Shown in pieces: positions 4,377 through 36,748 of a stretch of 52,910 nucleotides of DNA. Numbering within the stretch: the first letter of the stretch is position 1; each line of letters opens with the position of its first letter. Source of the DNA: Vicinamibacteraceae bacterium (GTDB lineage Bacteria; Acidobacteriota; Vicinamibacteria; Vicinamibacterales; JAFNAJ01); the NCBI GenBank assembly GCA_023384595.1, contig JAHDVQ010000002.1:1-52910 (forward strand), written 5' to 3'. Both the position numbers and the translations under genes were made by a program. The notes under the pieces are model-generated. The model did not search any database. It was not told the DNA's origin and saw only the letters and a program-made list of their open reading frames with translations.

Positions 4377-4377
4377 C
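4362..4377. promoter_or_regulatory. GTTAC-N6-GTGAC palindromic motif copy
   Basis: GTTACgcagagGTGAC, immediately upstream of the ATG at 4378 and about 267 bp downstream of the -24 GG at 4095. Confidence 0.4.
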
Positions 4378-9026: not shown

Positions 9027-9610
9027 TCGAGCCCCACGCGGCAGGCGCGGCCACGCTGGCCACGCCGCCCGTCGCCGCCGCCGCTGCGGCCGCGCCCGAC
9101 GCGCCCGGCGTCGAGGCCCTCGTCGACACGTTCATCGCTGCGCATCCCGGCGGGCACGAGCGGCTCATCCCGCTGCTGCACCTGCTGCAGGAGCGTCTGG
9201 GACACGTGCCGTTCGAGGCGCAGGACGTGGTGGCCGATCGTCTCGGACTGACGCCCATCCAGGTGTTCTCGGTCCTCAGCTTCTACCACTTCTTCACGCT
9301 GACCCCGCGCGGGCGTTACCCGCTCAAGGTCTGCATGGGGACGGCCTGCTTCGTCCGTCACGCCACACGACTGATCGAGACCATTCAGGATACGCTCGGC
9401 ATCGATGTGGGCGACTGCACGCCGGACCGCCTCTTCAGCCTGGAACAGGTGCGCTGCCTTGGCGCGTGCGGGCTGGCGCCGGCCGTCATGGTCGGCCAGG
9501 ACGTCCACGGCAACCTCGACACGAAGGCGATGCGCCGGCTCATCACGCAACTGCGGTCCCAGGGGCGACGCGAGGCGGTCGCGGCCGCGAAGGAGACGCC
9601 CCGTGGCTAG
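9023..9610 (+). CDS. NuoE/HoxE-like [2Fe-2S] thioredoxin-fold subunit
   Basis: Internal start with an ATGA overlap onto the upstream stop. Contains LIPLLHLLQERLGHV...FYHFF...VCMGTACFV...VRCLGACGLAP. Confidence 0.9.
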   Translation: MIEPHAAGAATLATPPVAAAAAAAPDAPGVEALVDTFIAAHPGGHERLIPLLHLLQERLGHVPFEAQDVVADRLGLTPIQVFSVLSFYHFFTLTPRGRYPLKVCMGTACFVRHATRLIETIQDTLGIDVGDCTPDRLFSLEQVRCLGACGLAPAVMVGQDVHGNLDTKAMRRLITQLRSQGRREAVAAAKETPRG

Positions 9611-11507
9611 CGCACCGGTGACCATCACGGCGGCCCCGCTCGGCGTCGGCGACCTCGCCCGCATCCGCGCCGAGCGCCGGCCGCGGCTCGAAGCGCGTCT
9701 GGCCTCGCTCCGGCCCGAGCGCGGCGTGGTGCGGGACGTGCTCGTGTGTGCCGGCGGCGGCTGCGTCTCGTGCCGGTCGACGACGCTCGCCGCCGAGTTC
9801 GAGCGGCTCATCGCCGCGTCAGGCCTGTCCGATCGCGCGCGGGTCGTGCAGGTCGGCTGCATGGGCCTGTGCGAGGCCGCGCCGCTGGTGCTCGTCGCGC
9901 CGGACGGCGTGTATTATCCGCGCGTCGACTTCTCCCTCGCCCGGCGCATCGTCACCGAGCACCTGGCGGAGGATGCACCCATCGGGGAGGCCGAGCTGAC
10001 GCACGAGCGCGATGGCGAGGTGCGCCGCAGCCGGGACGTACCCTTCTTCGCAAGACAGCTGAAGATCGCGTTGCGCAACTGCGGCGTGGTCGATCCGCTG
10101 AGCCTCGACGACTACATCGCGCTCGACGGCTACCAGGCGCTGGCGCACGTCCTGCTGGAGACCACGCCGGACGCGGTGCTCGACACGCTCAAGCGTTCGG
10201 GACTGCGTGGGCGGGGTGGCGCCGGCTTCCCCGCCGGCCTCAAGTGGCAGTTCGTCCGCGAGGCCGCGGGAGACGAGAAGTACATCATCTGCAACGGCGA
10301 CGAGGGCGACCCCGGCGCGTTCATGGATCGCAGTATCCTCGAGGGCGACCCGCACTCGGTCATCGAGGGCATGGCGATCGCCGGACACGTGGTGGGCGCA
10401 CGCCGCGGGTACGTCTACGTCCGCGCCGAGTACCCGCTGGCCATCGAGCGGCTCGGCCACGCCATCCTCGAGGCACGCGCCGCGGGCATCCTCGGCGCCC
10501 GGGTGCTGGGCACCGAGGCGGCCTTCGACCTCGAGATCCGCATCGGCGCCGGGGCCTTCGTGTGCGGCGAGGAAACGGCGCTCATCGCGTCGGTCGAGGG
10601 TAAGCGGGGCATGCCGAGGCCGCGACCGCCGTTTCCCGCACAGGCTGGCCTCTGGGGACGGCCAACCCTCATCAACAACGTCGAGACGTGGGCCAACGTG
10701 TCGCCCATCGTGCTGCGTGGTGCCGCCTGGTTTGCCGGCATCGGCACGGCGCGCAGCAAGGGCACGAAGGTCTTCGCGCTCGCGGGCGACGTGCGCAACA
10801 CCGGACTGGTCGAGGTGCCCATGGGCATCTCGCTGCGCGAGATCGTGCACGACATCGGGGGCGGCATCCGGTCGGATCAGCCGTTCAAGGCGGTGCAGGC
10901 CGGCGGGCCCTCCGGCGGGTGCGTGCCCGCCGAGGCGGCCGACGTGCCGGTCGATTACGAGTCGCTCCAGTCACTCGGCGCCGTCATGGGGTCGGGCGGC
11001 CTCATCGTGCTCCACGAGGGCACGTGCATGGTGGAGCTGACCCGGTTCTTCCTCGAGTTCCTCGTGGACGAATCGTGCGGCAAGTGTCCCCCGTGCCGCA
11101 TCGGCCTGCGCGTGATGCTCAACCTCGTCGAGCGGATCACCAAGGGCCTCGCCGCGCTGGAAGATCTCGACACGCTGATGGGTCTGGCGCGGCACATCCA
11201 GCGCAGCTCGCTGTGCGGTCTGGGCCAGACGGCACCGAACGCCGTGATCTCGACGCTCGAGCACTTCCGTGACGAGTGGGAGACGCACATCTACGATCGC
11301 CGCTGCCCCGCGCTCCAGTGCCGCGCACTGCTCACCTACGAGATCAACGAGGCCCTCTGCAACGGGTGCACGCTGTGCGCGAAGGCGTGCACCTCGAATG
11401 CCATCACCGGTGAGCTGAAGCAGCTCCATCGCATCGACGCGCTGCTCTGCACGCACTGCGGGGCCTGCGTCACCGCGTGTAACCGCGGCGCCGTCGTGGC
11501 GCACTGA
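9603..11507 (+). CDS. NuoF/HydB-like NAD(H)- and FMN-binding subunit with an N-terminal 2Fe-2S domain and a C-terminal 2x[4Fe-4S] domain
   Basis: GTG at 9603, 7 nt after AGGAG. Contains GRGGAGFPAGLKW, NGDEGDPGAF, ESCGKCPPCR, and C-terminal CNGCTLCAKAC...CTHCGACVTAC. Confidence 0.9.
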   Translation: MASAPVTITAAPLGVGDLARIRAERRPRLEARLASLRPERGVVRDVLVCAGGGCVSCRSTTLAAEFERLIAASGLSDRARVVQVGCMGLCEAAPLVLVAPDGVYYPRVDFSLARRIVTEHLAEDAPIGEAELTHERDGEVRRSRDVPFFARQLKIALRNCGVVDPLSLDDYIALDGYQALAHVLLETTPDAVLDTLKRSGLRGRGGAGFPAGLKWQFVREAAGDEKYIICNGDEGDPGAFMDRSILEGDPHSVIEGMAIAGHVVGARRGYVYVRAEYPLAIERLGHAILEARAAGILGARVLGTEAAFDLEIRIGAGAFVCGEETALIASVEGKRGMPRPRPPFPAQAGLWGRPTLINNVETWANVSPIVLRGAAWFAGIGTARSKGTKVFALAGDVRNTGLVEVPMGISLREIVHDIGGGIRSDQPFKAVQAGGPSGGCVPAEAADVPVDYESLQSLGAVMGSGGLIVLHEGTCMVELTRFFLEFLVDESCGKCPPCRIGLRVMLNLVERITKGLAALEDLDTLMGLARHIQRSSLCGLGQTAPNAVISTLEHFRDEWETHIYDRRCPALQCRALLTYEINEALCNGCTLCAKACTSNAITGELKQLHRIDALLCTHCGACVTACNRGAVVAH

Positions 11508-13459: not shown

Positions 13460-13536
13460 CTGACGGATCGGGGCTTCTGCGCAAGAGGCGCCGTCAGGTG
13501 GACGGGCAGGGGCTCGAATACAGGAGGACAGTCCTT

Positions 13537-14496
13537 ATGCGTAACGTTCATCTCGGCCGCATCGCGGCCATCCTCGCGCTCGTGGCGCTGCTGGTGCCAG
13601 CTTCCAGCTTCGCCGCCGCGAACTACAAGGGCTACGAGCGCGGCGATGCCCTGATCAGCGTCCAGGAGCTGAAGCAGCTCATGGATGCGAAGGATCCCCG
13701 GCTCCTCATCCTGGCCGTGGCCGACGTGGCCGACTACCGCCTGCCCGGGCACATCCCCGGCGCGCACCGCGTGTGGCGGCCCGACTACGAGATCAAGGTT
13801 GGCGACAAGTACCCGTTCGAGGGCATGATGCTCGAACAGGCGGCCTTCCAGGAGTTCGCCCGCAAGTTCGGCGTCAACAACGACACGATCCTGGTGATCT
13901 ACGACCATCAGTACGACGCCACCCGGCTGTGGTGGGGATTCTTCCTCTACGGCAAGGTCGCGCGCGTGCTCGACGGCGGATTCCAGGCGTGGAAGGCGGC
14001 CGGCTACGACACCGACAGCTTCGCCCCGAGCGCGCCGAAGGCCGGCAACTTCGTAGCCAAGCCGGCCAATCCGAAGCTCACGGCGACGATGGCCGACGTC
14101 AAGGCGTCGAAGGACAATGCCAACGTGCAGCTGTGGGACACCCGCGAGAAGGCCGAGTGGACGGGCGCGGAGCTGAAGAAGGGCGCCTTCCGCAAGGGCC
14201 GGATTCCCTGGGCGAAGTTCTTCAACTGGAAGGAATTCAAGAAGCCGATCGCCGAGGGCGAGAAGTTCACCGAGTTCAAGCCGGCCGCCGAGGTGAAGGC
14301 CGTCCTCGCCAAGTTCGGCGTCGACCAGAACAAGGAGCAGATCTTCTACTGCCAGTCGGCGGTGCGCACGACCACGCACATCTTCGCGATGTACATGCTC
14401 GGCTGGGACATCGAGAAGCTGCGCAACTACGACGGCTCCTGGATCGAGTGGAGCTACCACAAGGACAACCCGGTCGTCGTCGACGAGACGAACTGA
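13537..14496 (+). CDS. secreted two-domain rhodanese-type sulfurtransferase
   Basis: The ATG at 13537 follows AGGAGGA. Signal peptide MRNVHLGRIAAILALVALLVPASSFAAA. Tandem rhodanese domains with an active-site loop CQSAVRT. Confidence 0.85.
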   Translation: MRNVHLGRIAAILALVALLVPASSFAAANYKGYERGDALISVQELKQLMDAKDPRLLILAVADVADYRLPGHIPGAHRVWRPDYEIKVGDKYPFEGMMLEQAAFQEFARKFGVNNDTILVIYDHQYDATRLWWGFFLYGKVARVLDGGFQAWKAAGYDTDSFAPSAPKAGNFVAKPANPKLTATMADVKASKDNANVQLWDTREKAEWTGAELKKGAFRKGRIPWAKFFNWKEFKKPIAEGEKFTEFKPAAEVKAVLAKFGVDQNKEQIFYCQSAVRTTTHIFAMYMLGWDIEKLRNYDGSWIEWSYHKDNPVVVDETN

Positions 14497-16193: not shown

Positions 16194-16331
16194 GCTTCGG
16201 CGCCCGCCGGACGACCGATTGCGGTGGCCCCGTGGCCGCGCGGATGCTACCGTTTCGATCGATCGCCGCTCGCTCGTAGAGCGTCTCGTCTTCATCACAG
16301 GTCTTCCCGTTCCCGCACCAGGAGGTGCCGC

Positions 16332-17636
16332 ATGCCGGACACCCTGACGTTGATCGACAACCGCACGGGGCAGGAGTACACCGTCCCCATCACCGACGGC
16401 ACGATTGCGGCGATCGATCTCCGCCAGATCAAGACCTCGCCCGACGACTTCGGGCTGATGACGTATGACCCGGCGTTCATGAACACCGCGAACTGCCGAA
16501 GCTCGATCACGTTCATCGACGGCGACCGGGGCATCCTCCGCTATCGGGGCTACCCCATCGAGGAGCTCGCCGCGAAGAAGTCGTTCCTCGAGGTCGCGTG
16601 GCTCATCCTGAAAGGTGAGCTGCCCTCGGCCGAGGAGCTGCAGGCGTGGACCAACGATGTGACGATGCACACGATGGTGCACGAGAACATCAAGAAGTTC
16701 ATCGACGGCTTCCAGCACGACGCGCACCCGATGGGCATCTTCCTCAGCACCGTGGGCGCGCTATCGACGTTCTATCCCGACGCGAAGCACGTGCTCGACG
16801 CAGCCAACCGCAGGCTGCAGATCCGGCGTCTCGTGGCGAAGGTGCCGACCATCGCGGCCTACGCCTACCGGCACCACAGGGGCCTGCCGTACGTGCTGCC
16901 CGACAACGACCTCACCTACCCCGGCAACTTCCTGAACCTGCTGTTCAAGATGACCGAGGCGAAGTACACCGTGAACCCGGTGCTCGAGCGCGCGCTCGAC
17001 GTGCTGTTCATCCTGCACGCCGATCACGAGCAGAACTGCAGCACGACGACGATGCGCGGCATCGGCAGCGCGCTGTCGGATCCGTATTCGTGCGTGGCGG
17101 GCGCGGCGGCGGCCCTCTACGGCCCGCTGCACGGCGGGGCCAACGAGGCGGTGCTGCGCATGCTGGCCGAGATCGGCACGACGGCCAACATCCCGGGCTT
17201 CATCGAGCGCGTCAAGCAGGGGGAAGGGCGCCTCATGGGATTCGGGCACCGCATCTACAAGTCGTACGATCCGCGCGCCCGGATCCTGAAGGAGATGGCG
17301 CATCAGGTCTTCGCCGTCACGGGGCGCAACCCGATGCTCGACATCGCGCTCGAACTCGAGAAGATCGCGCTCGAGGACGAGTACTTCGTCAGCCGGAAGC
17401 TCTATCCGAACGTCGACTTCTACTCGGGGCTCATCTACCAGTCGCTGAAGTTTCCGGTCGCCATGTTCCCGGTGCTCTTCGCCATCCCGCGCACGGTGGG
17501 CTGGTTGGCACAGTGGGAGGAGATGCTCCTCGACAAGGACCAGAAGATCGCGCGTCCCCGGCAGATCTACACCGGCGTCATGGAGCGCCACCTGCCGGAG
17601 TTCGAGAAGGCCGCCGCGGGCAAGCCGAAGGCCTGA
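16332..17636 (+). CDS. gltA: citrate synthase
   Basis: Internal ATG at 16332 after ggaggtg. Contains GILRYRGYPIEELA, LHADHEQNCSTT, GPLHGGANEAV, and MGFGHRIYK. Confidence 0.95.
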   Translation: MPDTLTLIDNRTGQEYTVPITDGTIAAIDLRQIKTSPDDFGLMTYDPAFMNTANCRSSITFIDGDRGILRYRGYPIEELAAKKSFLEVAWLILKGELPSAEELQAWTNDVTMHTMVHENIKKFIDGFQHDAHPMGIFLSTVGALSTFYPDAKHVLDAANRRLQIRRLVAKVPTIAAYAYRHHRGLPYVLPDNDLTYPGNFLNLLFKMTEAKYTVNPVLERALDVLFILHADHEQNCSTTTMRGIGSALSDPYSCVAGAAAALYGPLHGGANEAVLRMLAEIGTTANIPGFIERVKQGEGRLMGFGHRIYKSYDPRARILKEMAHQVFAVTGRNPMLDIALELEKIALEDEYFVSRKLYPNVDFYSGLIYQSLKFPVAMFPVLFAIPRTVGWLAQWEEMLLDKDQKIARPRQIYTGVMERHLPEFEKAAAGKPKA

Positions 17637-17765: not shown

Positions 17766-17820
17766 CCCTCTCCGGTGATTCGTGGCGCCTGTCGTGCGCA
17801 CGGGAGGAGCAGGTTTGCAC

Positions 17821-19233
17821 ATGACCACCACGGCGGACGCCCCGCCGAGCCAGTCCTTCCACCGCAGCAAGCTCACGGCCGACGACGTCCAGCGACGCCT
17901 GCGCTACATCGTCGAGAAGGACCGGCTCGTGCTCGACGACCTGCCGCGGCGCTTTCTCGAGACGTTCGCCGCCATCCTGACCCACTCGAACTACCGCCAG
18001 GTCGTCGACAACTACGCCCGCATCACGGCCCGCTGCGCCAACTGCGCCCCGTCGTGCCAGATCTACCAGCACACGCACGCGCCGCACGACGTGCCCTGCT
18101 ACCGGTCGAACCTCCTCCTCGAGGTCTACCGCCGGCACTTCACGATGCGGGGGCTCATCACGACGCGGCTGCTGGGGCAGGAGTACCTGACCGAGGATCG
18201 CGTTCTCGAGATGGCCTCGACCTTCTACGACTGCACGGCGTGCCGGCGCTGCACGCTCGACTGCCCGCTCGGCCTCGATCACGGCCTCATCACGCACCTC
18301 GGACGCTACGTCCTGTCGGAGCTGGGCCTGGTGCCTCGGGCGCTCGTCATCTCGGTGCGCGAACAGCTCGAGGGCGCGACGCACAACACGTCGGCCATTC
18401 CCCTGCCGGCCATCCTCGACACCATCGAGTTCCTCGGCGAGGAGATCCGCGACGAGAAGCACCGCGAGGTGCAATTTCCCGTCGATCAGCCGAAGCGCGA
18501 CTTCGTCTTCTTCCCGGCGGTGAGCGACTACCTGATGGAAGCCGAGACGCTCATGGGGATCGCGCTCACCATGCACGTGGCCGGCGACCAGGACCGCTGG
18601 ACGATCGGCAGCCAGTACTTCGACGGCATCAACTACGGGCTCTTCTACAGCGACTGGATCCTCGAGCGGGTACTCCAGGCCGAACTCGACGAGGCCAGGC
18701 GGCTCGAAGCGACCAATATCCTCATTGGCGAGTGCGGGCACGCCTCGCGCTCGGCGAAGGCCTTCGCGAAGACCTTCGGCGGCGCCGACGCGCCGCCGGT
18801 GGTGCACATCATCGAGTACACCTACCGCGCGTACAAGGAAGGCCGGATCAGGTTCAGGCCCGGCGCGATCACCGAGCGCGTCACGTATCACGACCCCTGC
18901 AACATCGCACGCACGGGATGGGTGGTCGACCAGCCGCGTGAGCTGCTGCGGGCCTTCTGCAGCGACTACGTCGAGATGACGCCGCACGGCGCGGACAACC
19001 TCTGTTGCGGCGGCGGCGGCGGGACGGTCTCGGTCGACGAGCTGCGCCCGTACCGGACAGGGGTCACCGGCGCCAGGAAGGCCGAGCAGCTTCGCGCCAC
19101 GGGCGCGAAGTACATCGTGGCCCCGTGCGCCAACTGCAAGAAGCAACTGCGCGAGTTGTGCGAGGACCACGGCCTCGACATGCAGGTCGTCGGACTGCAC
19201 GACCTCATCTACCGCGCCCTCGACCTGGAGTGA
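17821..19233 (+). CDS. HdrD/HmcF/DsrK-like Fe-S protein with CCG domains
   Basis: The ATG at 17821 follows gggaggag. Contains CANCAPSCQIY, CTACRRCTLDCP, YHDPCN, and CCGGGGG...APCANCKKQL. Confidence 0.85.
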   Translation: MTTTADAPPSQSFHRSKLTADDVQRRLRYIVEKDRLVLDDLPRRFLETFAAILTHSNYRQVVDNYARITARCANCAPSCQIYQHTHAPHDVPCYRSNLLLEVYRRHFTMRGLITTRLLGQEYLTEDRVLEMASTFYDCTACRRCTLDCPLGLDHGLITHLGRYVLSELGLVPRALVISVREQLEGATHNTSAIPLPAILDTIEFLGEEIRDEKHREVQFPVDQPKRDFVFFPAVSDYLMEAETLMGIALTMHVAGDQDRWTIGSQYFDGINYGLFYSDWILERVLQAELDEARRLEATNILIGECGHASRSAKAFAKTFGGADAPPVVHIIEYTYRAYKEGRIRFRPGAITERVTYHDPCNIARTGWVVDQPRELLRAFCSDYVEMTPHGADNLCCGGGGGTVSVDELRPYRTGVTGARKAEQLRATGAKYIVAPCANCKKQLRELCEDHGLDMQVVGLHDLIYRALDLE

Positions 19234-19236
19234 GCG

Positions 19237-19947
19237 ATGCTCGACGCCTGGATTGACCTGGCCCGCGGCCCCCTGCTGCGCCTGGCGCTGCTCGTCATGC
19301 TGCTCGGGCTGCTGCGGGTGATCGCCCTGCAGGTCTACGAGCTGGTGGTCGCCTGGCGGCGCGCCGGCGACCAGTACGTGCCCTGGCGGATCGTGTGGCG
19401 GCGGCTCGCCGGCTGGATCGTCCCCTGGCGGGCGCTGCGCGACGGCAGACGCGCGCCCTACAGCGCCGCGTCGATCGTCTTTCACGCGGGCATCATCCTC
19501 GTGCCGCTCTTCTTCGCCGGGCACGTCGCCATCTGGCGGTCGGAGTTCGGCGTCACGCTGCCGGCCTTCTCGCACGCCACGGCCGATGTGCTCAGCCTGG
19601 CGGCGGTGGCGGCCCTCGTGTGGCTCCTCGCGGCCCGCGCGGCCAACCCGGCGCGCCGTCACCTGAGCGGGCTGCAGGACTGGATGCTGCCCGTGGGGCT
19701 GCTCGTCTGTCTCGGCGCGGGCCTTCTCACCTCGCACCCGCAGCTGAGCCCGTTCGACGCCCGCGCGGCGTATCTCGTGCACCTGCTGACGGCCGAGGCG
19801 CTGCTCGTCTTCGTCCCCCTCTCGAAGCTGCAACACATGGCGCTCTTCTGGACCACTCAGGCCTCGACCGAGCTGGGCTGGCGCTTCACGCCCGGGGCCG
19901 GCATGCGCGTGCGCGCCACGCTCGGGAAGGAAGGTCAGGGCGTATGA
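19237..19947 (+). CDS. NarI/HdrE/HmcE-like membrane di-heme cytochrome b candidate
   Basis: About five TM helices with spaced histidines (FHAGIILVPLFFAGH and YLVHLL...KLQHM). It sits between the HdrD-like and Fe-S genes. Confidence 0.7.
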   Translation: MLDAWIDLARGPLLRLALLVMLLGLLRVIALQVYELVVAWRRAGDQYVPWRIVWRRLAGWIVPWRALRDGRRAPYSAASIVFHAGIILVPLFFAGHVAIWRSEFGVTLPAFSHATADVLSLAAVAALVWLLAARAANPARRHLSGLQDWMLPVGLLVCLGAGLLTSHPQLSPFDARAAYLVHLLTAEALLVFVPLSKLQHMALFWTTQASTELGWRFTPGAGMRVRATLGKEGQGV

Positions 19948-20795
19948 TCGCGCATCCCTGCATCCTCAACGACGTCACGCGCTGCATCGGCTGCGAGGCG
20001 TGCGTCGACGCGTGCAAGCGGACCAACGGGCTCCCGCTCGAAGACGCGCCCCCGCGCGTCGGCGCCTCGCCCGACGGCCTGTCGGACACACGCTGGACCA
20101 GCATCGTCCGCCGGAGCGGCGGCGCCAACGTGCGCAAGCAGTGCCGCCATTGCCACGAGCCCGCCTGCGTCTCGGCGTGCCCGGTCGGCGCGCTCCAAAA
20201 GACGGCCGAGGGTCCGGTCGTCTACGACCAGTCGCTCTGCCTGGGCTGCCGCTATTGCATGATGGCCTGCCCGTTCGGCATTCCGCGCTACGAGTGGAAC
20301 AGCCTGACGCCGTCGGTGCGCAAGTGCGTCATGTGCCACGACCACCTGGCGAGCGGACGGCTCGATCGTCCGGCCTGCGTCAGCGCCTGCCCGGCCAACG
20401 CCACCACCTTCGGCGCGCGCGACCAGATGATCGCCGAGGCCGAACGGCGGCTGCGCGACCGCCCCGACCTTTACATCCAGAAGATCTGGGGGCTCGACGA
20501 GGTCGGCGGCACCTCGGTGCTCTACGTGTCGCACGTGGACGTCTCGTGGCTCGGCTGGCGCGATGCCGAGGTGCTCGGATCGGCGCCGCTGCCGGATCGC
20601 ACCTGGGAGGCCCTGCGCAAGGTGCCCTTCGAGTTCGTGGGCATGGGCGCCCTCATGACGGGCGTCTACTGGATCATCGAACGCCGCCAGCGGCTGGCCG
20701 GCGAGGCCGCGAAGGCCTCGCGCGCGGCCGCCGCTCCCCCGTCAGCGGATGCGGCGACGTCGCCTGGCGATGGACCTGAGGAGGCGTCGCGATGA
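19944..20795 (+). CDS. four-cluster ferredoxin subunit (HmcB/HybA/DmsB-like) with a C-terminal TM helix and no Tat or Sec signal
   Basis: ATGA overlap with the upstream stop. Contains CIGCEACVDAC, CRHCHEPACVSACP, CLGCRYCMMACP, CVMCHD, and ACVSACP. C-terminal helix FEFVGMGALMTGVYWII. Confidence 0.85.
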   Translation: MIAHPCILNDVTRCIGCEACVDACKRTNGLPLEDAPPRVGASPDGLSDTRWTSIVRRSGGANVRKQCRHCHEPACVSACPVGALQKTAEGPVVYDQSLCLGCRYCMMACPFGIPRYEWNSLTPSVRKCVMCHDHLASGRLDRPACVSACPANATTFGARDQMIAEAERRLRDRPDLYIQKIWGLDEVGGTSVLYVSHVDVSWLGWRDAEVLGSAPLPDRTWEALRKVPFEFVGMGALMTGVYWIIERRQRLAGEAAKASRAAAAPPSADAATSPGDGPEEASR

Positions 20796-22618
20796 CCGCG
20801 CGCGTTCGTGTCACCAAGGCCATTCTCTGGACCCTCGCCGGGCTGGCTGCCGGCGTCACGGTCGTCCGCTTCGCGCGAGGGCTCGGCGCGACGACGGCGC
20901 TCTCGGACGCGACGCCCTGGGGTTTGTGGATCGGCTTCGACGTGATGGGCGGGGTCGCGCTCGCCGCGGGCGGATTCGTGGTCGCCGGGCTGGCGCACAT
21001 CTTCCACCGCGAGCGCTACCACCATGCGGTGCGTCCGGCGGTGCTCACGGCGTTGCTCGGTTACGGCGCGGTCGTCGTCGGCCTGCTCTACGACCTCGGG
21101 CTTCCGTGGCACATCTGGCACCTGACCATCTTCTGGAATCCGCGCTCGCCGCTCTTCGAGGTCGGCTGGTGCGTGATGCTCTACCTCACGGTGCTCGTGC
21201 TCGAGTTCGCGCCGGTCGTCCTCGAGCGCACCCGGTTCCAGGGGGCCTATCGCCTGCTCCTCCGCCTCCAGCTGCCGCTCATCATCGTCGGCATCGCGCT
21301 CTCGACCCTGCACCAGTCCTCGCTCGGCACGCTCATCCTGATCATGCCGTTCCGGGTGCACGAGCTGTGGTACACGGCGCTGCTCCCCGAGTTGTTCTTC
21401 GTGACGGCCATCTGCCTCGGGCTGGCGATGGTCATCGTCGAGTCCACCGTGGTGTCGTGGCTCTACCGGCGGACCCCGCACACCGACATGGTGGCGGGAC
21501 TCGCCCGGCTCGCCGCCTGGGCGCTGGCCTTCCAGCTGGCATTCCGGCTCGGCGACCTCGCGTGGAACGGCCGGCTGCCGCTCGCTTTCGAAGGCTCGCG
21601 CGAAAGCGGGCTCTTCCTCGTCGAACTGGCCCTCTCGACGCTCATCCCGCTCGTGCTCTTCGCCGTGCCGCGCCTGCGCGTGCGCCAGGGCGTGATGCTC
21701 ACGGCCGCGGGGTCGTCGGTCATCGGGTTCCTGTTCCACCGTGTGAACGCGTCGGGGCTCGCGCACGTGAGCGTCACGGGCAGCAGCTACTTCCCGTCGT
21801 GGACCGAGTTCGTGGTGAGCGTGGGGGTCGTCTCGGCCGCCGCCCTGGTGTTCCTGTGGCTCGAGGAACACGTCCCCGTCGATCCCGCCTCGCTCGATGC
21901 CGAGCAGCGGACGCGGCGGCTGCAGCTCTTCGAGCTGCCGCGGCTCAACCCGCTTCGTGTGTGGCTCGGCGATGAGGGCTTCGGCGTGCGGCGCGTCTAC
22001 TCGTTCGCCTTCGTGCTGGCCATGGCGCTGGGCCTGACGCTCACCCCGTGGCAGCCGCTCGTGCAGGCCTCTCCCGTCGAGCGAGCCCGCGGCGGGGCGA
22101 ACGAGCTGCTCGTCGGCTACCCGCTGGGCACGGTGCGTTTCCCCCATACCGCGCACGTGGAGCGTATCGGGCACGATGCGTGCGGCACGTGCCACCACGC
22201 GAACCGCCCGGGCGACGCGGGCACGCCGTGCAGCGAGTGCCACGCCGACCTCTACCTGCCCACCCGGGTCTTCGAACACGCGCGGCACGTGGCGGCGCTT
22301 CAGGGCAACGCGTCGTGCGCGCAGTGCCACGAGCAGGGGCGCCCCCTTTCGGCCGACGTGACGCGGGCGTGCTCGTCGTGCCATCGGCCCGGCAAGGCCG
22401 CGAGCCCCTGGGCTCCCCGCTACGCCGCGACGACGGCGCCTGGCCTTCGCCGGGTGTCGCACACGCTGTGCATCGGGTGCCACGAGCGTGAAGCCACACG
22501 GCTCGACCCGCCCCGGCCCGATCTCGCAAAGTGCGCCACCTGCCACCGGTCGGCGGTACCCCACCGCGATGTGGTGCGGCCGGTGCGCACCGAGGCCCGT
22601 CACGTTACGCCGCGGTGA
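20792..22618 (+). CDS. NrfD/HmcC/HybB-like integral membrane subunit fused to a C-terminal six-heme cytochrome c domain
   Basis: Polytopic N-terminal portion of about 440 aa. The C-terminal region carries six CxxCH motifs (CGTCH, CSECH, CAQCH, CSSCH, CIGCH, CATCH) between about 22181 and 22546. Confidence 0.85.
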   Translation: MTARVRVTKAILWTLAGLAAGVTVVRFARGLGATTALSDATPWGLWIGFDVMGGVALAAGGFVVAGLAHIFHRERYHHAVRPAVLTALLGYGAVVVGLLYDLGLPWHIWHLTIFWNPRSPLFEVGWCVMLYLTVLVLEFAPVVLERTRFQGAYRLLLRLQLPLIIVGIALSTLHQSSLGTLILIMPFRVHELWYTALLPELFFVTAICLGLAMVIVESTVVSWLYRRTPHTDMVAGLARLAAWALAFQLAFRLGDLAWNGRLPLAFEGSRESGLFLVELALSTLIPLVLFAVPRLRVRQGVMLTAAGSSVIGFLFHRVNASGLAHVSVTGSSYFPSWTEFVVSVGVVSAAALVFLWLEEHVPVDPASLDAEQRTRRLQLFELPRLNPLRVWLGDEGFGVRRVYSFAFVLAMALGLTLTPWQPLVQASPVERARGGANELLVGYPLGTVRFPHTAHVERIGHDACGTCHHANRPGDAGTPCSECHADLYLPTRVFEHARHVAALQGNASCAQCHEQGRPLSADVTRACSSCHRPGKAASPWAPRYAATTAPGLRRVSHTLCIGCHEREATRLDPPRPDLAKCATCHRSAVPHRDVVRPVRTEARHVTPR

Positions 22619-24470: not shown

Positions 24471-25664
24471 ATGAGCGAGAAGAAGTACGAGACGCCGCTC
24501 CTCGACGAGCTGGAGAAGGGCCCCTGGCCCAGCTTCATTCGCGAGATCAAGCAAGAGGCGGAGCGCCCCATGGTCCGCGATCTGCTCGGAGTGCTCGAGC
24601 GGTCGTACGAGGAGCACATCGGCCACTGGAAGCACGGCGGCCTCGTGGGCGTGATGGGATACGGCGGCGGCGTCATCGGCCGCTACTCGGACCTGCCGGA
24701 GGAGTTCCCCGACGTCTCCGAGTTCCACACCTTCCGCGTGAACCAGCCCGCCGGGTGGTTCTACACCTCGGGCGCGCTGCGCGACCTCTGCGACATCTGG
24801 GACAAGCACGGCTCCGGCCTCACCAACATGCACGGCTCGACGGGCGACATCGTGTTCCTCGGCGGCAAGACGACGTCGATCGAGCCGGTCTTCGCCGACC
24901 TCACCGAGAAGGGCTGGGACCTTGGCGGCTCGGGCTCCGACATGCGGACGCCGAGCTGCTGCGCGGGCCCCGCGCGCTGCGAGTGGGCGAACTACGACAC
25001 GCTCAACGCGTGCCACGAGATCACACAGGCCTACCAGGACGAGCTGCATCGGCCGGCGTTCCCGTACAAGTTCAAGCTGAAGTTCGCCGGCTGCCCGAAC
25101 GACTGCGTGGCCTCGGTCGCCCGCGCCGACATGTCCATCATCGGCACCTGGAAGGACGAGATCCAGATCGACCAGGAGCAGGTGCGCGCCTACGCGGCCC
25201 GCGGCATGGACATCGAGCGCGAGATCGTCGAACTGTGCCCCTGCGACTGCATCTCGTGGGACGGCCAGGCGATGGAGATCGCCGACGGCGAGTGCGTGAA
25301 GTGCATGCACTGCATCAACCACATGCCGAAGGCGCTCCGTCCGGGCAAGGAACGCGGCGCCGCGATTCTCATCGGCGCCAAGGCGCCGATCGTCGGTGGC
25401 GCGCTCCTCAGCTCGGTCTTCGTGCCGTTCCTGGAGATGACCCCGCCTTACAGCGACCTGCGCGAGCTCATCGAAGCCATCTGGGACTTCTGGGGTGAGC
25501 ACGGCAAGAACCGCGAACGCGTCGGCGAGTTCATCCAGCGCGTCGGGCTCGGCAAGTTCCTGGAGCAGATCGGGCTCGACCCGGTGCCCGAGATGATCGC
25601 GCACCCGCGCTCGAACCCCTACATCTTCTTCGACGACGAAATCGTGGCCGGGGCCGAGGCCTGA
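24471..25664 (+). CDS. dsrA: dissimilatory sulfite reductase alpha subunit
   Basis: [47 protein letters not shown], and ferredoxin insert [15 protein letters not shown] aaggag. Confidence 0.97.
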
Positions 25665-25685
25665 GTGCTGCAAGGAGGACGTGAC

Positions 25686-26762
25686 ATGGCTGTTGCTGGG
25701 CGCAAGACCGACATCGGGCCGCCCCATTACGAGAACTTTCTGCCGCCCGTCATCAAGCGGAACTACGGGAAGTGGGCCTATCACGAGATCCCCGAGCCGG
25801 GGGTGCTGGTCCACGTCAGCGAGTCGGGCGAGAAGCTGTTCACGGTGCGCGCGGGCACGCCGCGCATCCTGAGCATCAAGACGATCAGGACCTTCGCCGA
25901 CCTCGCCGACAAGTACGCCGACGGCTACCTCCGCTTCACCAGCCGGAACAACGTCGAGTTCCTGCTGAGCGACGAGGGGAAGGTGTTCCCGCTCAAGACC
26001 GAGCTGGGCACCCTGGGCTATCCCGTCGGCGGGACGGGGAACGCCATCTCGGCCATCGTGCACACGCAGGGCTGGGTGCACTGCCACTCGGCGGCGTCCG
26101 ACGCGTCGGGCGTGGTGAAGTCGCTGATGGACGCCCTCTATCCGCGGTTCACCTCGATGGACCTGCCCGCGAAGCTGCGCGTCGCCTTCGCGTGCTGCCT
26201 GAACATGTGCGGCGCCGTGCACTGCTCCGACATCGCGGTGCTGGGCGTGCACACGCGGCCGCCGCGCATCGATCACTCGGAGCTGCCGAAGATCTGCGAG
26301 GTGCCGACGCTCATCTCGTCGTGCCCCACCGGCGCGATCCGGCCGACCACCGTCGACGGAAAGCCGTCCGTGGAAGTGGAAGACGGGCAGTGCATGTACT
26401 GCGGCAACTGCTACACGGTCTGCCCGGCGATGAAGATCAACAACCCGAAGACCGACGGCATTTCGATCTGGGTCGGCGGCAAGGTCTCGAACGCGCGGCA
26501 CGAGCCGATGTTCTCGAAGCTCGCGATCCCGTTCCTGCCCAACAACCCGCCGCGCTGGACCGAGGTGGTCGATGCGGTCGTGAACATCGTCGACGTCTAT
26601 GCGAAGCACGCGCGCAAGCACGAGCGCATGGGCGAGTGGATCGAGCGCATCGGGTGGCCGCGCTTCTTCAAGCTCACGGGCATCCCGTTCACGAAGTACC
26701 ACATCGACGACTTCACCCATGCCGGCGAGACCTTCAGGCGCTCCGTGCACCTGAAGTCGTAG
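25686..26762 (+). CDS. dsrB: dissimilatory sulfite reductase beta subunit
   Basis: The ATG at 25686 follows AAGGAGGA. Contains [43 protein letters not shown], and [12 protein letters not shown]. Confidence 0.97.
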
Positions 26763-26777: not shown

Positions 26778-27017
26778 ATGAGCGAGATCGCGGTAGCACA
26801 GGTCGCCGAGGCGATGTACGACCTCGTGAAGTCCACCCACGGCAAGAAGAACCTGAAGCCGATGGACCTCACCAAGGCCATGATCGAGCAGTTCGGCGAA
26901 GGCTGCGACAAGCAGATCTGCAAGCAGGCGATCCGCGAGTTGATCGACTCCGGACGCTGCATCTACAGCTACGTCGGGGGCAGCTACATCACGCTGCCGC
27001 CGACGGCGACGGCCTGA
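26778..27017 (+). CDS. dsrD: DsrD-like small protein
   Basis: 79 aa, immediately after dsrB, with a lysine-rich N-terminal half (HGKKNLKPMDLTKAM). The C-terminal YSYVGGSYITL resembles the DsrD YWSSGSTTMY region. Confidence 0.8.
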   Translation: MSEIAVAQVAEAMYDLVKSTHGKKNLKPMDLTKAMIEQFGEGCDKQICKQAIRELIDSGRCIYSYVGGSYITLPPTATA

Positions 27018-27068: not shown

Positions 27069-27518
27069 ATGTCCACGACACCGGCGAAGGTCAAGGGACC
27101 CGAACGTACAGCGCAGCTCGTCGACGCCTTGCGGCGCTGGCAGGCCATCGAACGCGATGCCATCGAGCACACCGCCTCGATGATGGAGAAGACGCCGAAC
27201 CCGCTCATCCGGCAGATCCTCGAGATCATCCGGAACGACTCGGTGCAGCATCACCGGGTGCAGCAGTTCATCATCGACACCGTCACCACCACGCCCGTGA
27301 GCCTCACGCCCGAGGAGCTCGGCGCCGTGTGGGACGAGATCGAGGCCCACGACCAGCTCGAGAAGGAAGTCGTCGAGCTCGGGAAGCAGATCCGCAAGGA
27401 ATGCCGCTTCCCCGTCCAGCGCATGCTGCTCGACTACCTCATTCACGACGAGCAGAAGCACGACCTGCTGCTCGGCGAGCTGGAGAAGTTCAAGAAGCAG
27501 CTGTACCCGTACGTATAG
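27069..27518 (+). CDS. hypothetical all-helical Glu/His-rich protein (possibly a ferritin-like helical bundle)
   Basis: 149 aa with a good RBS (ccaggagag) and high GC3. E/H-containing helices IERDAIEHT, NDSVQHHR, EIEAHDQLEKE, and HDEQKHD. Family not recognised with confidence. Confidence 0.6.
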   Translation: MSTTPAKVKGPERTAQLVDALRRWQAIERDAIEHTASMMEKTPNPLIRQILEIIRNDSVQHHRVQQFIIDTVTTTPVSLTPEELGAVWDEIEAHDQLEKEVVELGKQIRKECRFPVQRMLLDYLIHDEQKHDLLLGELEKFKKQLYPYV

Positions 27519-27575: not shown

Positions 27576-29297
27576 ATGGCACTCCTCAAGAAGAAGGAAG
27601 ACAAGAAACCGTTCGTGGCCAGATCGTCGGCCGGGGGCACCGGGTCCGAGATTTCGCCGCTGCGTCCGGTGGCCGTGCTGAAGGAGCCGCCGTGCATCGG
27701 GCACTGCCCGAGCGGGAACGACATCCGCGGGTGGCTGACGATCATCGCCCAGCGGGAGAAGCTGGGCCTGAGCCTCGACGAGGCCTGCACGCGCGCGTGG
27801 CGGATCGAGGTCGAGACCAACCCCTTCCCCGCTGTCATGGGCCGCGTCTGCCCGCACCCCTGCGAGGGCGAGTGCAACCGCAAGGTGAAGGATGGCGCGG
27901 TGGCCATCAACTCGGTCGAGCGCTTCATCGGCGACTTCGGCCTCGAGCACGCGCTTGCGCTGCCGCGCCTCACCTCGGAGCCGAAGCCGCAGAAGGTCGC
28001 GGTGGTCGGCGCGGGGCCCTCGGGCCTCTCGTGCGCCTACCAGCTCGCGCGCCGTGGCTACCCCGTCACCGTCTTCGAGGCCTTCGAGAAGCCGGGCGGC
28101 ATGCTTCGCTACGGCATTCCCGAATACCGCCTGCCGCGGCAGGTCCTCGACGGCGAGATCCAGCGCATCGCCGACCTCGGCGTCGAGATCCGCTGCGGCA
28201 CCACCATCGGCGGTGACGTGTCGCTCGACGACCTGCGCCGCGAGTACCAGGCGGTGTTTGTCGGCATCGGCGCGCACAAGGGCCGCAACCTCGGCATCGC
28301 GGGCGAAGAGGGCGCCGGCGTCTACACCGGCACCGAGTTCCTCAACCGCGCGAACCGCGGCGAGTCGGTCGCTCTCGGCCGGCACGTGGTCGTCGTCGGC
28401 GGAGGCGATACGGCCATCGACGCCGCGCGCGTCTCGCTGCGCCTCGGCTCCGACGTGGCGGCGGTGTCGCGGCGCATGGGCGCGGGCGTCACCGTCCTCT
28501 ACCGCCGCACCCGCGCCGAGATGCCCGCCATCGGCCGCGAGATCGAGGAGGCCCTCGAAGAGGGCATCCGCATCGAGTACCTCGCCGCGCCGGTGCGCGT
28601 CGTGCGCAACGGCGACGGGCAGATGACCGGCATCGTCGTCCAGCGCATGGCGCTTGGCGAACCCGATGCGTCGGGCCGTCGCCGCCCGGTGCCGATCGAA
28701 GGCGATACCTACGAGATCGAGGCCGACACGCTCATCACCGCCGTCAGCCAGGAACCCGACTGGTCGAGCCTCGGCACCGCCGAGGTGAAGGGATCGTGGC
28801 TCGAGGTGGACGAGTGGGGGCACACCGGCATGCCCGACGTGTGGTCGGGCGGCGACTCGGTGGGCCTCGGCCTGGCGACCATTTCAATTGGCCAGGGGCG
28901 CAAGGCCGCCGAAGCCATCGACGCGGCGCTGCGCGGCGTCGAGCCCACGAAGCCCGCGCCGCTGCCGCGCGTCGGCCCCGAGCGCATCAAGCTCGATTAC
29001 TACGAGCCCAAGCCGCGCGCCGAACGCACGGTGCTCGGCCCCGAGGATCGCCTGGCCCGCCCGACCGAGGAGGTCGACAAGGGCATCACGGACGAGGCCG
29101 CCCTCTTCGAGACGACGCGGTGCTTCTCGTGCGGATCCTGCTTCGGGTGCGAGCGCTGCTGGATGTACTGCCAGAACAACTGCGTGAAGAAGCTCACGCC
29201 CGAACCGGGCCACTACTACAAGATCGACCTCACGGTGTGCGACGGCTGCAAGAAGTGCGCGGAAGAGTGCCCGTGCGGGTTCCTCGAGATGGTGTGA
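27576..29297 (+). CDS. dsrL: DsrL-type NAD(P)H:acceptor oxidoreductase (GltD-like with a C-terminal ferredoxin domain)
   Basis: CIGHCPSGNDIRGW, CPHPCEGECNR, VAVVGAGPSGL, VVVVGGGDTAIDAAR, and C-terminal CFSCGSCFGCERC...CDGCKKCAEECPCG. It lies inside the dsr operon. Confidence 0.88.
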   Translation: MALLKKKEDKKPFVARSSAGGTGSEISPLRPVAVLKEPPCIGHCPSGNDIRGWLTIIAQREKLGLSLDEACTRAWRIEVETNPFPAVMGRVCPHPCEGECNRKVKDGAVAINSVERFIGDFGLEHALALPRLTSEPKPQKVAVVGAGPSGLSCAYQLARRGYPVTVFEAFEKPGGMLRYGIPEYRLPRQVLDGEIQRIADLGVEIRCGTTIGGDVSLDDLRREYQAVFVGIGAHKGRNLGIAGEEGAGVYTGTEFLNRANRGESVALGRHVVVVGGGDTAIDAARVSLRLGSDVAAVSRRMGAGVTVLYRRTRAEMPAIGREIEEALEEGIRIEYLAAPVRVVRNGDGQMTGIVVQRMALGEPDASGRRRPVPIEGDTYEIEADTLITAVSQEPDWSSLGTAEVKGSWLEVDEWGHTGMPDVWSGGDSVGLGLATISIGQGRKAAEAIDAALRGVEPTKPAPLPRVGPERIKLDYYEPKPRAERTVLGPEDRLARPTEEVDKGITDEAALFETTRCFSCGSCFGCERCWMYCQNNCVKKLTPEPGHYYKIDLTVCDGCKKCAEECPCGFLEMV

Positions 29298-31772: not shown

Positions 31773-32090
31773 ATGGCCACGTTCACCCAAGGAGACGTCA
31801 GCTTCGCCGTCGACGAAGACGGCTTCATGGCCGAACCGGAGAAGTGGGACGAGAAGATCGCCCTGGCGCTTGCCGGCACCGAGGGCGTCGAGACGCTGAC
31901 CGACGACCACTGGAAGGTGGTCAACTACCTGCGGAATTATTTCCTGCAGTTCGGTGTGGCGCCCATGATCCGGAAGCTCTGCAAGGAGACCGGGTTCGAC
32001 CTGAAGACGATCTACGCCCTCTTCCCCTCGGGTCCGGCCAAGGGCGCCTGCAAGGTCGCCGGCCTCCCGAAGCCGACCGGCTGCGTCTAG
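31773..32090 (+). CDS. dsrC: DsrC (TusE/DsrC family) with both conserved C-terminal cysteines
   Basis: 105 aa containing HWKVVNYLRNYF and ending ...GACKVAGLPKPTGCV. Confidence 0.95.
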   Translation: MATFTQGDVSFAVDEDGFMAEPEKWDEKIALALAGTEGVETLTDDHWKVVNYLRNYFLQFGVAPMIRKLCKETGFDLKTIYALFPSGPAKGACKVAGLPKPTGCV

Positions 32091-32276: not shown

Positions 32277-32837
32277 GTGCGTGCTCCGCTTCCCCTCGAC
32301 CCCGCGCTCCGCGAGGCGCTCGCCGCCCGGCGGGATGCCCTTGTCGCCGCCTGGCGCGAGCGGGTGCTCGCCTCCTATCCCGAGGAGGCCCTGCGCCTGC
32401 TGCGCCGCTCGCCGGATCCGTTCAGCAATCCCGTCGTGCACCGCCTGCACGAGGCCACCGCGGCCATCGTGGACCTGCTGATCCTGCCGGTCGCCGCGCC
32501 CGGCGATCTCGCCGCCGCGCTCGATCCGCTCATGCGCGTCAAGGCCGTGCAGTCGCAGTCGGCCTCCGAGGCGGCCGGGTCGGTGCTGCTCCTCAAGCGC
32601 GCCGCTGCCGACGTGCTGGGCGATGCCTGCTCGCCGCGCGATCGGGCTGCCATCGACGAGGCCTGTGACGCGCTGATGCTCGCCGCCTTCGACGCGTACA
32701 TGCGGTGCCGCGACGAACTGCACGCCATCCGGCTGCGCGACGTCAGGCGTCGTGTCGCCGTCGTACTCGAACGCTTTGCCGGGACGGCCACCGAGGAGGC
32801 CGCGGCCGACGACGGGACGCGCGTCCCGCTCGGTTGA
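32277..32837 (+). CDS. RsbRD-N-terminal-domain-like protein in the position of dsrT (upstream of dsrM)
   Basis: LREALAARRDALVAAWRERVLASYPEEALRLLRRSPDPFSNPV fits the RsbRD_N-type opening. The track start (TTG at 32241) overlaps the promoter, so I prefer the GTG at 32277. Confidence 0.5.
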   Translation: MRAPLPLDPALREALAARRDALVAAWRERVLASYPEEALRLLRRSPDPFSNPVVHRLHEATAAIVDLLILPVAAPGDLAAALDPLMRVKAVQSQSASEAAGSVLLLKRAAADVLGDACSPRDRAAIDEACDALMLAAFDAYMRCRDELHAIRLRDVRRRVAVVLERFAGTATEEAAADDGTRVPLG

Positions 32838-32854
32838 TGACGGAGGAACCCACC

Positions 32855-35505: not shown

Positions 35506-35878
35506 CAAGGGCAAGATCCTGACCGGCCTCGTGCTGTTCGTGGCCATCGTCGCCTTCCCCTTCTGGTGGAGCCTGGCGAGCGGCGCCGAGGTCCGCGTCC
35601 CGGACATCGCCAAACCCGCCGGCGAGACGCAGTGCCTCGAGGACGCCGAGACCATGCGCCGCGAGCACATGCAACTGCTCGCCACCTGGCGCGACGATGT
35701 GGTGCGGCTGCGGCAGCGCATTCACACGACACCGGACGGCCGGCAATACCGCAAGAGCCTGACGGGCACCTGCCTGCAGTGCCACACCGACAAGGCCGCC
35801 TCGTGCGATCGCTGCCACGACTACCTCGACGTCGCCCCCTACTGCTGGGACTGCCACGTCGCGACGGGAGAACGCTGA
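35498..35878 (+). CDS. dsrJ: DsrJ triheme cytochrome c
   Basis: N-terminal TM/signal anchor and three CxxCH motifs (CLQCH, CDRCH, CWDCH). Confidence 0.9.
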   Translation: MYDKGKILTGLVLFVAIVAFPFWWSLASGAEVRVPDIAKPAGETQCLEDAETMRREHMQLLATWRDDVVRLRQRIHTTPDGRQYRKSLTGTCLQCHTDKAASCDRCHDYLDVAPYCWDCHVATGER

Positions 35879-36741: not shown

Positions 36742-36748
36742 GGCGGAC

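Follow-up and report, generated by a model that had tools for sequence, protein, structure and literature searches.

The 52,910-nt stretch of Vicinamibacteraceae bacterium contig JAHDVQ010000002.1 analyzed here (the window) carries four adjacent genes, named F, E, B and C, for a cytoplasmic Fe-S protein related to DsrK, a NarI-type cytochrome b, a ferredoxin-type subunit with a membrane-spanning tail, and an NrfD-type membrane protein that ends in a six-haem cytochrome c. Judging from the sequences and their relatives, we think it probable that this cassette encodes one transmembrane redox complex, made of five modules in four polypeptides, which would act beside DsrMKJOP and hold the Fe-S domain of its B subunit in the periplasm. 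Since the module set equals that of DsrMKJOP and of the Desulfovibrio Hmc complex, the complex should carry electrons across the membrane.

Reading frames were chosen by third-position GC, which is 0.92-0.94 in all four plus-strand open reading frames (ORFs) of this window (~70% GC). F and E are separated by a gap of 3 nt, and the E/B and B/C junctions are ATGA stop/start overlaps; on the basis of this spacing and these overlaps F-E-B-C (17821-22618) is read as one translationally coupled operon (Table 1). A sequence-only reading of the same DNA had described the gene order as HdrD-like, NarI-like cytochrome b, four-cluster ferredoxin and NrfD-like, and the family matches of the four proteins agree with it.

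Table 1. Features of the F-E-B-C operon, the parts of subunit C, and neighboring genes (window positions; bit scores are given with their model cut-offs where available).
Feature	Position	Strand	Remarks
F, cytoplasmic DsrK/HmcF/TmcB-type Fe-S protein	17821-19233	+	alternative GTG start at 17782
E, NarI-type di-haem membrane cytochrome b	19237-19947	+	TmcC and HmcE matches
B, four-[4Fe-4S] ferredoxin-type subunit with C-terminal transmembrane helix	19944-20795	+	Fer4_11, HmcB, HybA
C, NrfD/HybB-type subunit with six-haem cytochrome c	20792-22618	+	NrfD and Cytochrom_CIII
C part 1, predicted quinone-interacting core of NrfD/HybB/HmcC type, ten transmembrane helices, N-in	20792-21871	+	residues 1-360
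C part 2, predicted cytoplasmic linker and 11th transmembrane helix	21872-22051	+	linker 361-401, helix 402-420
C part 3, predicted periplasmic six-haem domain of c3/c7/Hmc type	22052-22618	+	stop codon included
Citrate synthase gene	16224-17636		upstream neighbor of the operon
YeiH-family membrane protein (putative sulfate exporter), 579 residues	22713-24452	+	PF03601, TIGR00698; between the cassette and dsrA
dsrA	24471-25664	+	570 bits, above cut-off
dsrB	25665-26762	+	509 bits, above cut-off
dsrD-like ORF	26778-27017	+	conserved in related loci
149-residue ORF	27069-27518		strong coding signal (third-position GC 0.92), no Pfam or NCBIfam match
dsrL-like gene, NAD(P)-binding Fe-S flavoprotein	27576-29297		PRK12771, 591 bits
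dsrC	31773-32090	+	TIGR03342, 114.8 bits against 53.5; C-terminus ...CKVAGLPKPTGCV
dsrMKJOP, complete	32837-37906	+	bits/cut-off: DsrM 438/300, DsrK 720/400, DsrJ 152/100, DsrO 283/200, DsrP 452/350

The cassette, a large family that spans at least six phyla, is peculiar neither to the source genome nor to sulfite reducers. A search of 5.8 billion proteins gave more than 110 clusters of proteins of ~610 residues (45-87% identity; NCBI, ENA, JGI and Logan) that contain both PF03916 and PF02085, and a scan of one genome per GTDB species gave 566 relatives, from which 80 loci were kept. The homologue search proposed with the sequence-only reading thus found the NrfD-cytochrome fusion to be widespread. 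In all 80 loci the match extends to residue 585 of 608 or beyond. Loci from Vicinamibacterales (71-76% identity) are joined by those of other Acidobacteriota, Zixibacteria, Ignavibacteria (Melioribacter- and Ignavibacterium-like metagenome-assembled genomes, MAGs, among them), Kapabacteria and Bacteroidota, and single Myxococcales and Hyphomicrobiales MAGs are also among the carriers. When the four window proteins were aligned to these loci with tblastn, the order F-E-B-C was recovered wherever the flank reaches. F was found in 75 of the 80 loci; four of the five exceptions end at a contig edge, and one locus alone (L039) has room yet no F match. A paralogous cassette, F'-E'-B'-C', keeps the identical order at 37 further loci (L081-L117), with a C' of 647 residues that is ~31% identical to C and has six haems, and some genomes, such as that of L081, contain both versions. 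The conserved order, the ATGA overlaps and this same-order paralogue argue that the four genes form one functional unit.

The N-terminal core of C belongs to the NrfD/PsrC family, with a Pfam NrfD match (PF03916, residues 39-317) of 66.7 bits against a gathering threshold of 25.8 and a bundle of ten transmembrane (TM) helices. NCBIfam models score 277 bits for HybB, 275 for HmcC and 37 for DsrP, and the protein is 33% identical to Escherichia coli HybB across residues 22-365, the entire core. The AlphaFold2 (AF2) model of C (predicted local distance difference test score, pLDDT, of 78; predicted template modelling score of 0.72) contains helices at 365-377 and 395-417, and its best fold match in the PDB is ActC of alternative complex III (E ~1e-8, template modelling score 0.64), followed by ActF and PsrC. 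An alignment of 114 sequences supports 11 TM helices, and in these sequences lysines and arginines average 12.7 over the five short loops that share the side of the N-terminus, against 3.65 over the alternate loops. This positive-inside bias predicts that the N-terminus of C is cytoplasmic and that its C-terminal cytochrome lies outside, as haem attachment requires. The loops assigned to the periplasm are of invariant length (14, 18, 12, 17 and 19 residues) and contain the majority of the invariant positions, while the cytoplasmic loops are just 4-9 residues long. Helix 10 is followed by a conserved cytoplasmic linker of ~42 residues with P383, F385 and V390-W-L-G393.

The remainder of C is a class III multihaem cytochrome of the c3/c7/Hmc type, with closely spaced CxxCH motifs and two Pfam matches above threshold (PF02085, residues 493-585, 5e-13, 49.7 bits against 22.9; PF14522, 38.3 bits against 24.8). 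The claim that a six-CxxCH domain is fused to the C-terminus of the NrfD-like protein holds to the exact coordinates: the motifs, at residues 464, 480, 509, 527, 560 and 581 (22181-22546), lie within 122 residues, the chance expectation from the composition of C is ~0.014, and all six are retained in at least 113 of the 114 family members. Matches of the domain to HmcA and nine-haem cytochromes in the PDB are weak, and the HmcA model gives 36.7 bits on C against a cut-off of 400. Because its stand-alone relatives P0325 and P0339 (~210 residues), which are encoded in F-E-cytochrome clusters, start with an N-terminal anchor helix, helix 11 of C was probably once the signal anchor of an independent cytochrome. 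Two further candidates for a stand-alone cytochrome were set aside, P0305 as a frameshifted fusion on a 2.9x contig and P0334 for its uninformative flank. Tat (twin-arginine translocation) signals were sought in C as well. An internal signal before helix 11 (V-R-R-V-Y-S-F in the window) was rejected, as the two arginines are present in merely 60 and 70 of the 114 sequences. A Tat-like N-terminus was likewise rejected as a general feature, with RVR in the window, a single arginine in the paralogue, and a polytopic protein unable to carry a folded passenger. In one Acidobacteriota clade (L007, L008, L011, L013, L015, L018, L020 and L022) C starts M-E-N-R-R-L-F-L-F-K, near the Tat consensus, ahead of the first TM helix; the C of other clades, that of the window among them, starts with R-x-R or a single arginine.

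F and E form a pair like the known DsrMK and HdrDE. F has a Pfam CCG domain, a Fer4_8 domain and two ferredoxin-type cysteine motifs, and its NCBIfam scores (DsrK 248, TmcB 201 and HmcF 193 bits) are all under the cut-off. A 2024 study gives one CCG motif (CXnCCGXnCX2C) together with the cysteine of T/GECGH as the signature common to DsrK, HmcF and TmcB (PMC10861901). F has both, GECGH at residues 303-307 and a single CCG motif (C360...C395-C396-G397...C436-x-x-C439), kept in at least 95% of 71 homologues, and is thus a CCG reductase of the DsrK/HmcF/TmcB type, 30% identical to the DsrK of the same window. E has no Pfam match, and its NCBIfam scores (TmcC 107.5 and HmcE 97.4 bits) are under the cut-off. 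It has the build of the di-haem cytochromes b of the NarI/HmcE/TmcC type: five TM helices, with H83 and H96 on helix 2 and H182 and H200 on helix 5, all four kept in at least 95% of 78 sequences. These histidines would ligate two haems b, as in NarI. The mean number of lysines and arginines per loop in those sequences (8.2, 1.7 and 3.6 inside; 0.9, 0.4 and 0.3 outside) predicts that the N-terminus of E is outside and its C-terminus inside.

B starts with MIAHPCILNDVTRCIGCEAC at 19944 and, as the sequence-only reading had observed, has a C-terminal TM helix and neither a Tat nor a Sec signal. It matches Pfam Fer4_11 and the NCBIfam models HmcB (242 bits), HybA (185), formate dehydrogenase beta subunit (116) and DsrO (89), and its 16 conserved cysteines are enough for four clusters. 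The alignment to the HmcB model begins at position 38 and that to the HybA model at position 41; in BLASTP (32% identity) residue 7 of B corresponds to residue 40 of E. coli HybA, just past the HybA Tat signal, and the match runs through the tail helix. Since these alignments begin past the N-terminus of HybA and HmcB, the signal region is absent from B. All 78 loci that cover the start show the same N-terminus, M-x(2-5)-I-L-T/N-D-V-T-K/R-C-I-G-C, right at the E stop codon, and in many of them an in-frame stop just 2-17 codons upstream makes a signal peptide impossible. An upstream alternative start was discarded, the in-frame sequence there being part of gene E and devoid of a Tat-like motif.

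The tail of B points to the outer side of the membrane. In its AF2 model (pLDDT 81) the first strand begins at residue 5 and a long helix spans 226-263, and the best fold match is FdnH (1kqf_B, E 4e-16). The tail TM helix (residues 227-245, 20622-20678; VPFxFVGMGxxMxGxxWII) is followed by an invariant R247-R248, and the tail helix of HybA also ends in RR. The 15 residues before the helix contain on average 1.67 lysines and arginines and the 15 after it 4.85, and 72 of 79 loci have more after than before, whereas no locus has fewer. This bias and the invariant RR predict a tail with its C-terminus in and its N-terminus out, the orientation of the established Tat-integrated proteins HybA and FdnH. 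In keeping with an NrfCD-type module, the Fe-S partner is encoded beside the NrfD subunit, with B immediately 5' of C wherever the flank suffices; a Tat signal of its own or of an adjacent catalytic subunit for delivery, the other mark of such modules, is missing. B and C occur without E and F at one locus (L115), and F, E and a cytochrome occur without B and C at two others (L118 and L119), which argues that B belongs with C and not with E and F. No natural B-C, B-E or B-F fusions were found; the long 'B' ORFs of L012 and L078 owe their length to read-through of GC-rich DNA in another frame. The canonical orientation of C, the HybA-like tail with its RR and the co-occurrence of B and C lead us to place the Fe-S domain of B, with a likelihood clearly above that of a cytoplasmic position, in the periplasm, docked on C as in known NrfCD-type modules and with its tail running from out to in. 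The expectation that the topology, and with it the electron path, would not be obvious was apt: B has no signal, yet its tail charges and the orientation of C point to the periplasm.

In the complex that we propose, the six-haem domain would exchange electrons with periplasmic donors or acceptors such as soluble cytochromes. One route would lead from these haems through the two haems b of E to F, which would reduce a cytoplasmic protein disulfide or trisulfide, in this genome most likely that of DsrC, because dsrC and dsrABD adjoin and adjacency to dsrAB recurs in relatives. A second route would connect the periplasmic haems via B to a menaquinone site on the periplasmic side of C, so that the B-C module may couple to the quinone pool, possibly with proton uptake as in its closest relatives QrcD and HybB, both of which take up protons from the cytoplasm. 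The complex would serve as a second, cytochrome-linked route beside DsrMKJOP; in carriers without nearby dsr genes the substrate may be other than DsrC.

We give hardly any credence to an artefact, in which a frameshift or assembly error would have produced the fusion, or a mis-called start of B would hide a signal peptide. One related contig of low coverage (L120, 5-1379, 2.9x) does have its NrfD and cytochrome parts in different frames, and a protein database lists the cytochrome, P0305, as a separate protein of 246 residues; this split is probably an assembly error. Against an artefact stand the more than 110 full-length fusion clusters from different sources, the 80 loci that match the fusion over nearly its full length, the stops upstream of B, and database gene calls for B homologues, which are 208-284 residues throughout 120 clusters. 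Operon DNA is moreover present in many wastewater, sludge, bioreactor and soil sequencing runs, and contigs of four independent sludge metatranscriptome assemblies cover the operon of the source organism with no indel, crossing the gene junctions and the NrfD-cytochrome junction. A frameshift and a re-called start, which the sequence-only reading had itself raised, were thus both checked with a negative outcome. A number of other points count against the complex as proposed. The contigs that span the gene junctions suggest transcription of the operon, but metatranscriptome contigs may include DNA and are good for sequence and merely suggestive for transcription. None of the four proteins reaches an NCBIfam equivalog cut-off for Hmc, Tmc or Dsr subunits. 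Fe-S proteins reach the periplasm via Tat alone, and no signal peptide was found on B in the 78 loci or in the paralogous B' family; clustering and scanning of all ORFs within the 7-kb flanks of the 80 loci gave no recurrent Tat-motif protein, the sole recurrent neighbors being a PAS kinase, a response regulator, a sigma-54 activator and a Cys-rich ORF of 262 residues, no Tat carrier is near the cassette in 117 loci (the 80 and the 37 paralogous ones), and the sole Tat motif of the 53-kb window is that of DsrO. To our knowledge, the only precedents for signal-less periplasmic tail-anchored Fe-S proteins are FdnH and a HybA-like protein. Like B, both have four clusters, a C-terminal anchor and no signal of their own; unlike B, both are encoded alongside their carrier, FdnG in the one case and a Tat [FeFe] hydrogenase in the other (PMC10924467), which leaves a periplasmic B with no known export route. 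B might instead stay in the cytoplasm as a NarH-like wire beside E and F, with the six-haem domain serving the periplasmic quinone site of C. This would explain the missing signal and carrier, and B shares its fold family with the cytoplasmic NarH and HycB, E is NarI-like with a stop codon that the start of B always overlaps, and the conserved linker of C (P383, F385, VWLG) could dock a partner on that side. The signal-less B-C pair of L115, flanked only by membrane-anchored GcvH-like ORFs of which at least one is seemingly cytoplasmic (post-helix charges, by eye), fits as well. The invariant RR and the charge excess past the tail helix nevertheless predict the opposite orientation, as in HybA; the cytoplasmic loops of C are short, and its most conserved loops are periplasmic; a bridging B is unnecessary, since F-E pairs function without it in L119, DsrMK and HdrDE; and the occurrence of B follows that of C, not that of E and F. 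We also know of no cytoplasmic four-cluster subunit with such a C-terminal tail. A cytoplasmic B is accordingly an explanation that we hold to be rather unlikely. Absence of a signal alone does not make B cytoplasmic, and with neither a signal nor a Tat partner nearby, export of a periplasmic B must rely on a carrier encoded elsewhere or on a novel route.

The link to dissimilatory sulfite reduction is open to a similar objection. A dsrA gene within 7 kb is lacking in 70 of the 80 loci, and among the carriers are lineages with no known sulfite reduction; with most loci lacking a nearby dsrA, DsrC cannot be the general substrate of the family. The complex could therefore be no Dsr accessory at all, and could combine quinol:cytochrome c (or cytochrome c:quinone) exchange with some other cytoplasmic thiol/disulfide couple, adjacency to dsrAB being incidental or a secondary recruitment. 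Carriers without nearby dsrA include Ignavibacteria, Melioribacter-like, Zixibacteria, Kapabacteria and Bryobacterales MAGs, their flanks encode a PAS histidine kinase, a response regulator and a sigma-54 activator and no sulfur genes, and in the Melioribacter genome paper an NrfCD pair is interpreted as a module of quinol:cytochrome type. For the genome studied here we nonetheless find this explanation doubtful. dsrA is adjacent in 10 of the 80 loci (L001-L005, L012, L013, L017, L018 and L032), and adjacency to dsrAB takes at least three arrangements across Vicinamibacterales, other Acidobacteriota and one Ignavibacteria MAG; F has the full DsrK-type catalytic signature, with DsrK as its top model, and dsrC lies within the same window. 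A complex acting beside DsrMKJOP remains the reading that we prefer.

Comparison with known complexes shows a familiar set of parts in an unfamiliar arrangement. The modules F, E, B, C core and cytochrome domain correspond to HmcF, HmcE, HmcB, HmcC and HmcA; HmcB is the top NCBIfam match of B, and for C HmcC nearly equals the top match HybB. In Hmc, however, HmcA is a separate 16-haem protein, whereas the cassette has a six-haem cytochrome joined to the C-terminal end of its NrfD subunit. HmcD has no counterpart, as the cassette operon has no extra ORF, although the 11th helix of C could fill an HmcD-like place. The gene order is A-B-C-D-E-F in Hmc and F-E-B-C in the cassette, the N-terminal region of HmcB is missing from B, and the cassette scores (HmcF 193, HmcE 97, HmcB 242 and HmcC 275 bits) are far under the equivalog cut-offs of 750, 275, 420 and 550 bits, that of HmcA being 400. 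Of the proposed match to the Hmc subunit set, the modules therefore stand and membership does not: 'Hmc-like' is a resemblance, and the module set equals that of DsrMKJOP equally well.

The correspondence with DsrMKJOP is M to E, K to F, J, a cytochrome c on an uncleaved anchor helix, to the cytochrome, O to B and P to C, and F shares GECGH and the single CCG motif of DsrK. The separate cytochrome from which helix 11 of C may stem would be comparable to DsrJ, which is membrane-anchored (PMC10861901). The two differ in that the cassette proteins fall well below the Dsr cut-offs (bits/cut-off: F 248/400, E 18.6/300, B 89/200, C 37.5/350), DsrJ is separate with three haems while the cassette cytochrome is fused with six, DsrO has a Tat signal and B none, and C is nearer to HybB and HmcC than to DsrP (277 against 37 bits). 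TmcABCD has the same E-F pair and a small c3-type cytochrome as transmembrane conduit, with TmcC as the top model of E, but TmcD is absent from the cassette and a B-C (NrfCD-type) module is added between E and the cytochrome. B and C also resemble HybA and HybB of E. coli hydrogenase 2, at 32% (including the RR-ended tail helix) and 33% identity; HybA, by contrast, has its own Tat signal (~39 N-terminal residues absent from B) and serves the hydrogenase HybOC, and the cassette lacks a hydrogenase and adds the cytochrome domain to C. ActC, the best structural match of the ten-helix NrfD core, is 13-15% identical in sequence, and alternative complex III combines a Tat-exported ActB with ActA and ActE as cytochromes of their own and contains neither a cytochrome b nor a CCG module. 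Four traits set the cassette apart from Hmc, Tmc and DsrMKJOP: the fused six-haem domain, the lack of HmcD and TmcD, the gene order and the signal-less B.

Two short contigs bear on the origin of this arrangement. L118 (3-927) and L119 (3-1908) carry a three-gene Tmc-like cluster in which F and E are accompanied by a separate, N-terminally anchored six-haem cytochrome and B and C are absent; these cytochromes are ~36-38% identical to the fused domain, and the F of L119 is 60% identical to that of the window. Three scans of genome and metagenome collections for stand-alone cytochrome loci gave nothing, and the two contigs came from an exact look-up. Comparison of these clusters with the cassette suggests that the latter arose by insertion of a B-C module and fusion of C to the cytochrome anchor. 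The B-C locus L115 (3654-8024) encodes a signal-less B-like protein and a 399-residue NrfD protein without cytochrome domain, with no E, F or cytochrome. It is flanked by three ORFs that resemble, by eye, glycine-cleavage H or lipoyl carriers, two of them with an N-terminal TM helix, and then by a sensor kinase and a sigma-54 regulator.

Outside the dsr-linked Acidobacteriota (L024-L080), genes for a PAS histidine kinase (~494 residues, 55 loci) and for a response regulator usually come after the cassette; often located 5' of it are a PAS/sigma-54 activator and a Cys-rich ORF of 262 residues. These neighbors point to dedicated redox regulation. The paralogous cassette occurs in Ignavibacteria, Zixibacteria, Bacteroidota, Hyphomicrobiales-labelled MAGs and others (for example L089, 6001-7941, and L076, 13160-15103 on the minus strand). 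Databases name proteins of the family 'Ni/Fe-hydrogenase cytochrome b subunit' or 'formate dehydrogenase iron-sulfur subunit'. The sequence-only reading had also asked whether the fusion is already a well-described family. We found no description of the cassette in Melioribacter and Ignavibacterium genome papers, acidobacterial sulfur papers, NrfD reviews or the 2024 survey of tail-anchored Tat proteins, although an earlier description is possible, and the cassette is widespread yet apparently undescribed.

Downstream of the operon and the YeiH-family gene the window continues with dsrA, dsrB, a dsrD-like ORF, a 149-residue ORF, a dsrL-like gene, dsrN, dsrC and dsrMKJOP (Table 1). NCBIfam cut-offs are passed by dsrA, dsrB, dsrN, dsrC and all five subunits of dsrMKJOP, and not by the dsrD-like, 149-residue and dsrL-like ORFs. 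The coexistence of the operon with a complete DsrMKJOP is thereby confirmed, as is the Tat signal RRTFVK of DsrO, which starts MPLERRTFVK at 35878. The YeiH-family protein has long N- and C-terminal extensions and is found in the same position in L001, L002 and L004 and is absent from L005. The presence of dsrD is usually taken as a marker of the reductive type; with dsrD-like and dsrL-like genes in one cluster, gene content does not make plain in which direction the pathway runs. Upstream in the window are a 714-residue GltD-like flavoprotein-ferredoxin-CCG fusion (4351-6495; NF045663, 521.5 bits, just under the cut-off of 530), a 700-residue NuoF-like protein (9405-11507) and a double-rhodanese protein (13498-14496), which together may constitute a further thiol/disulfide or sulfur-transfer system.

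How electrons are delivered to cytoplasmic sulfite reduction, and how much energy is conserved, depends on complexes of the Hmc, Tmc and DsrMKJOP type, which have been studied almost solely in Desulfovibrio and a few other models. The cassette, a compact variant with four genes, is common among Acidobacteriota, Zixibacteria and Ignavibacteria of sludge, soil and sediment and lies beside dsrAB in several lineages, and its nature is hidden by the hydrogenase and formate dehydrogenase names given to its proteins in databases. The signal-less, apparently periplasmic B is a test case for Tat hitchhiking and for the rules by which NrfD modules assemble, and since relatives are found in MAGs assigned to Melioribacter and Ignavibacterium, genera with cultured species, its placement would be testable if cultured strains carry the cassette. 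A cytoplasmic B would give the first NrfD-type module without a periplasmic Fe-S partner, an architecture new for NrfD-family complexes, and export of B through a Tat carrier that is never adjacent, or through a novel route, would be equally new. With either placement, a conserved multi-phylum family breaks the rule that explains the placement of all other such subunits, and the cassette is a candidate for a main electron route in newly recognized, non-classical sulfite and sulfate reducers.

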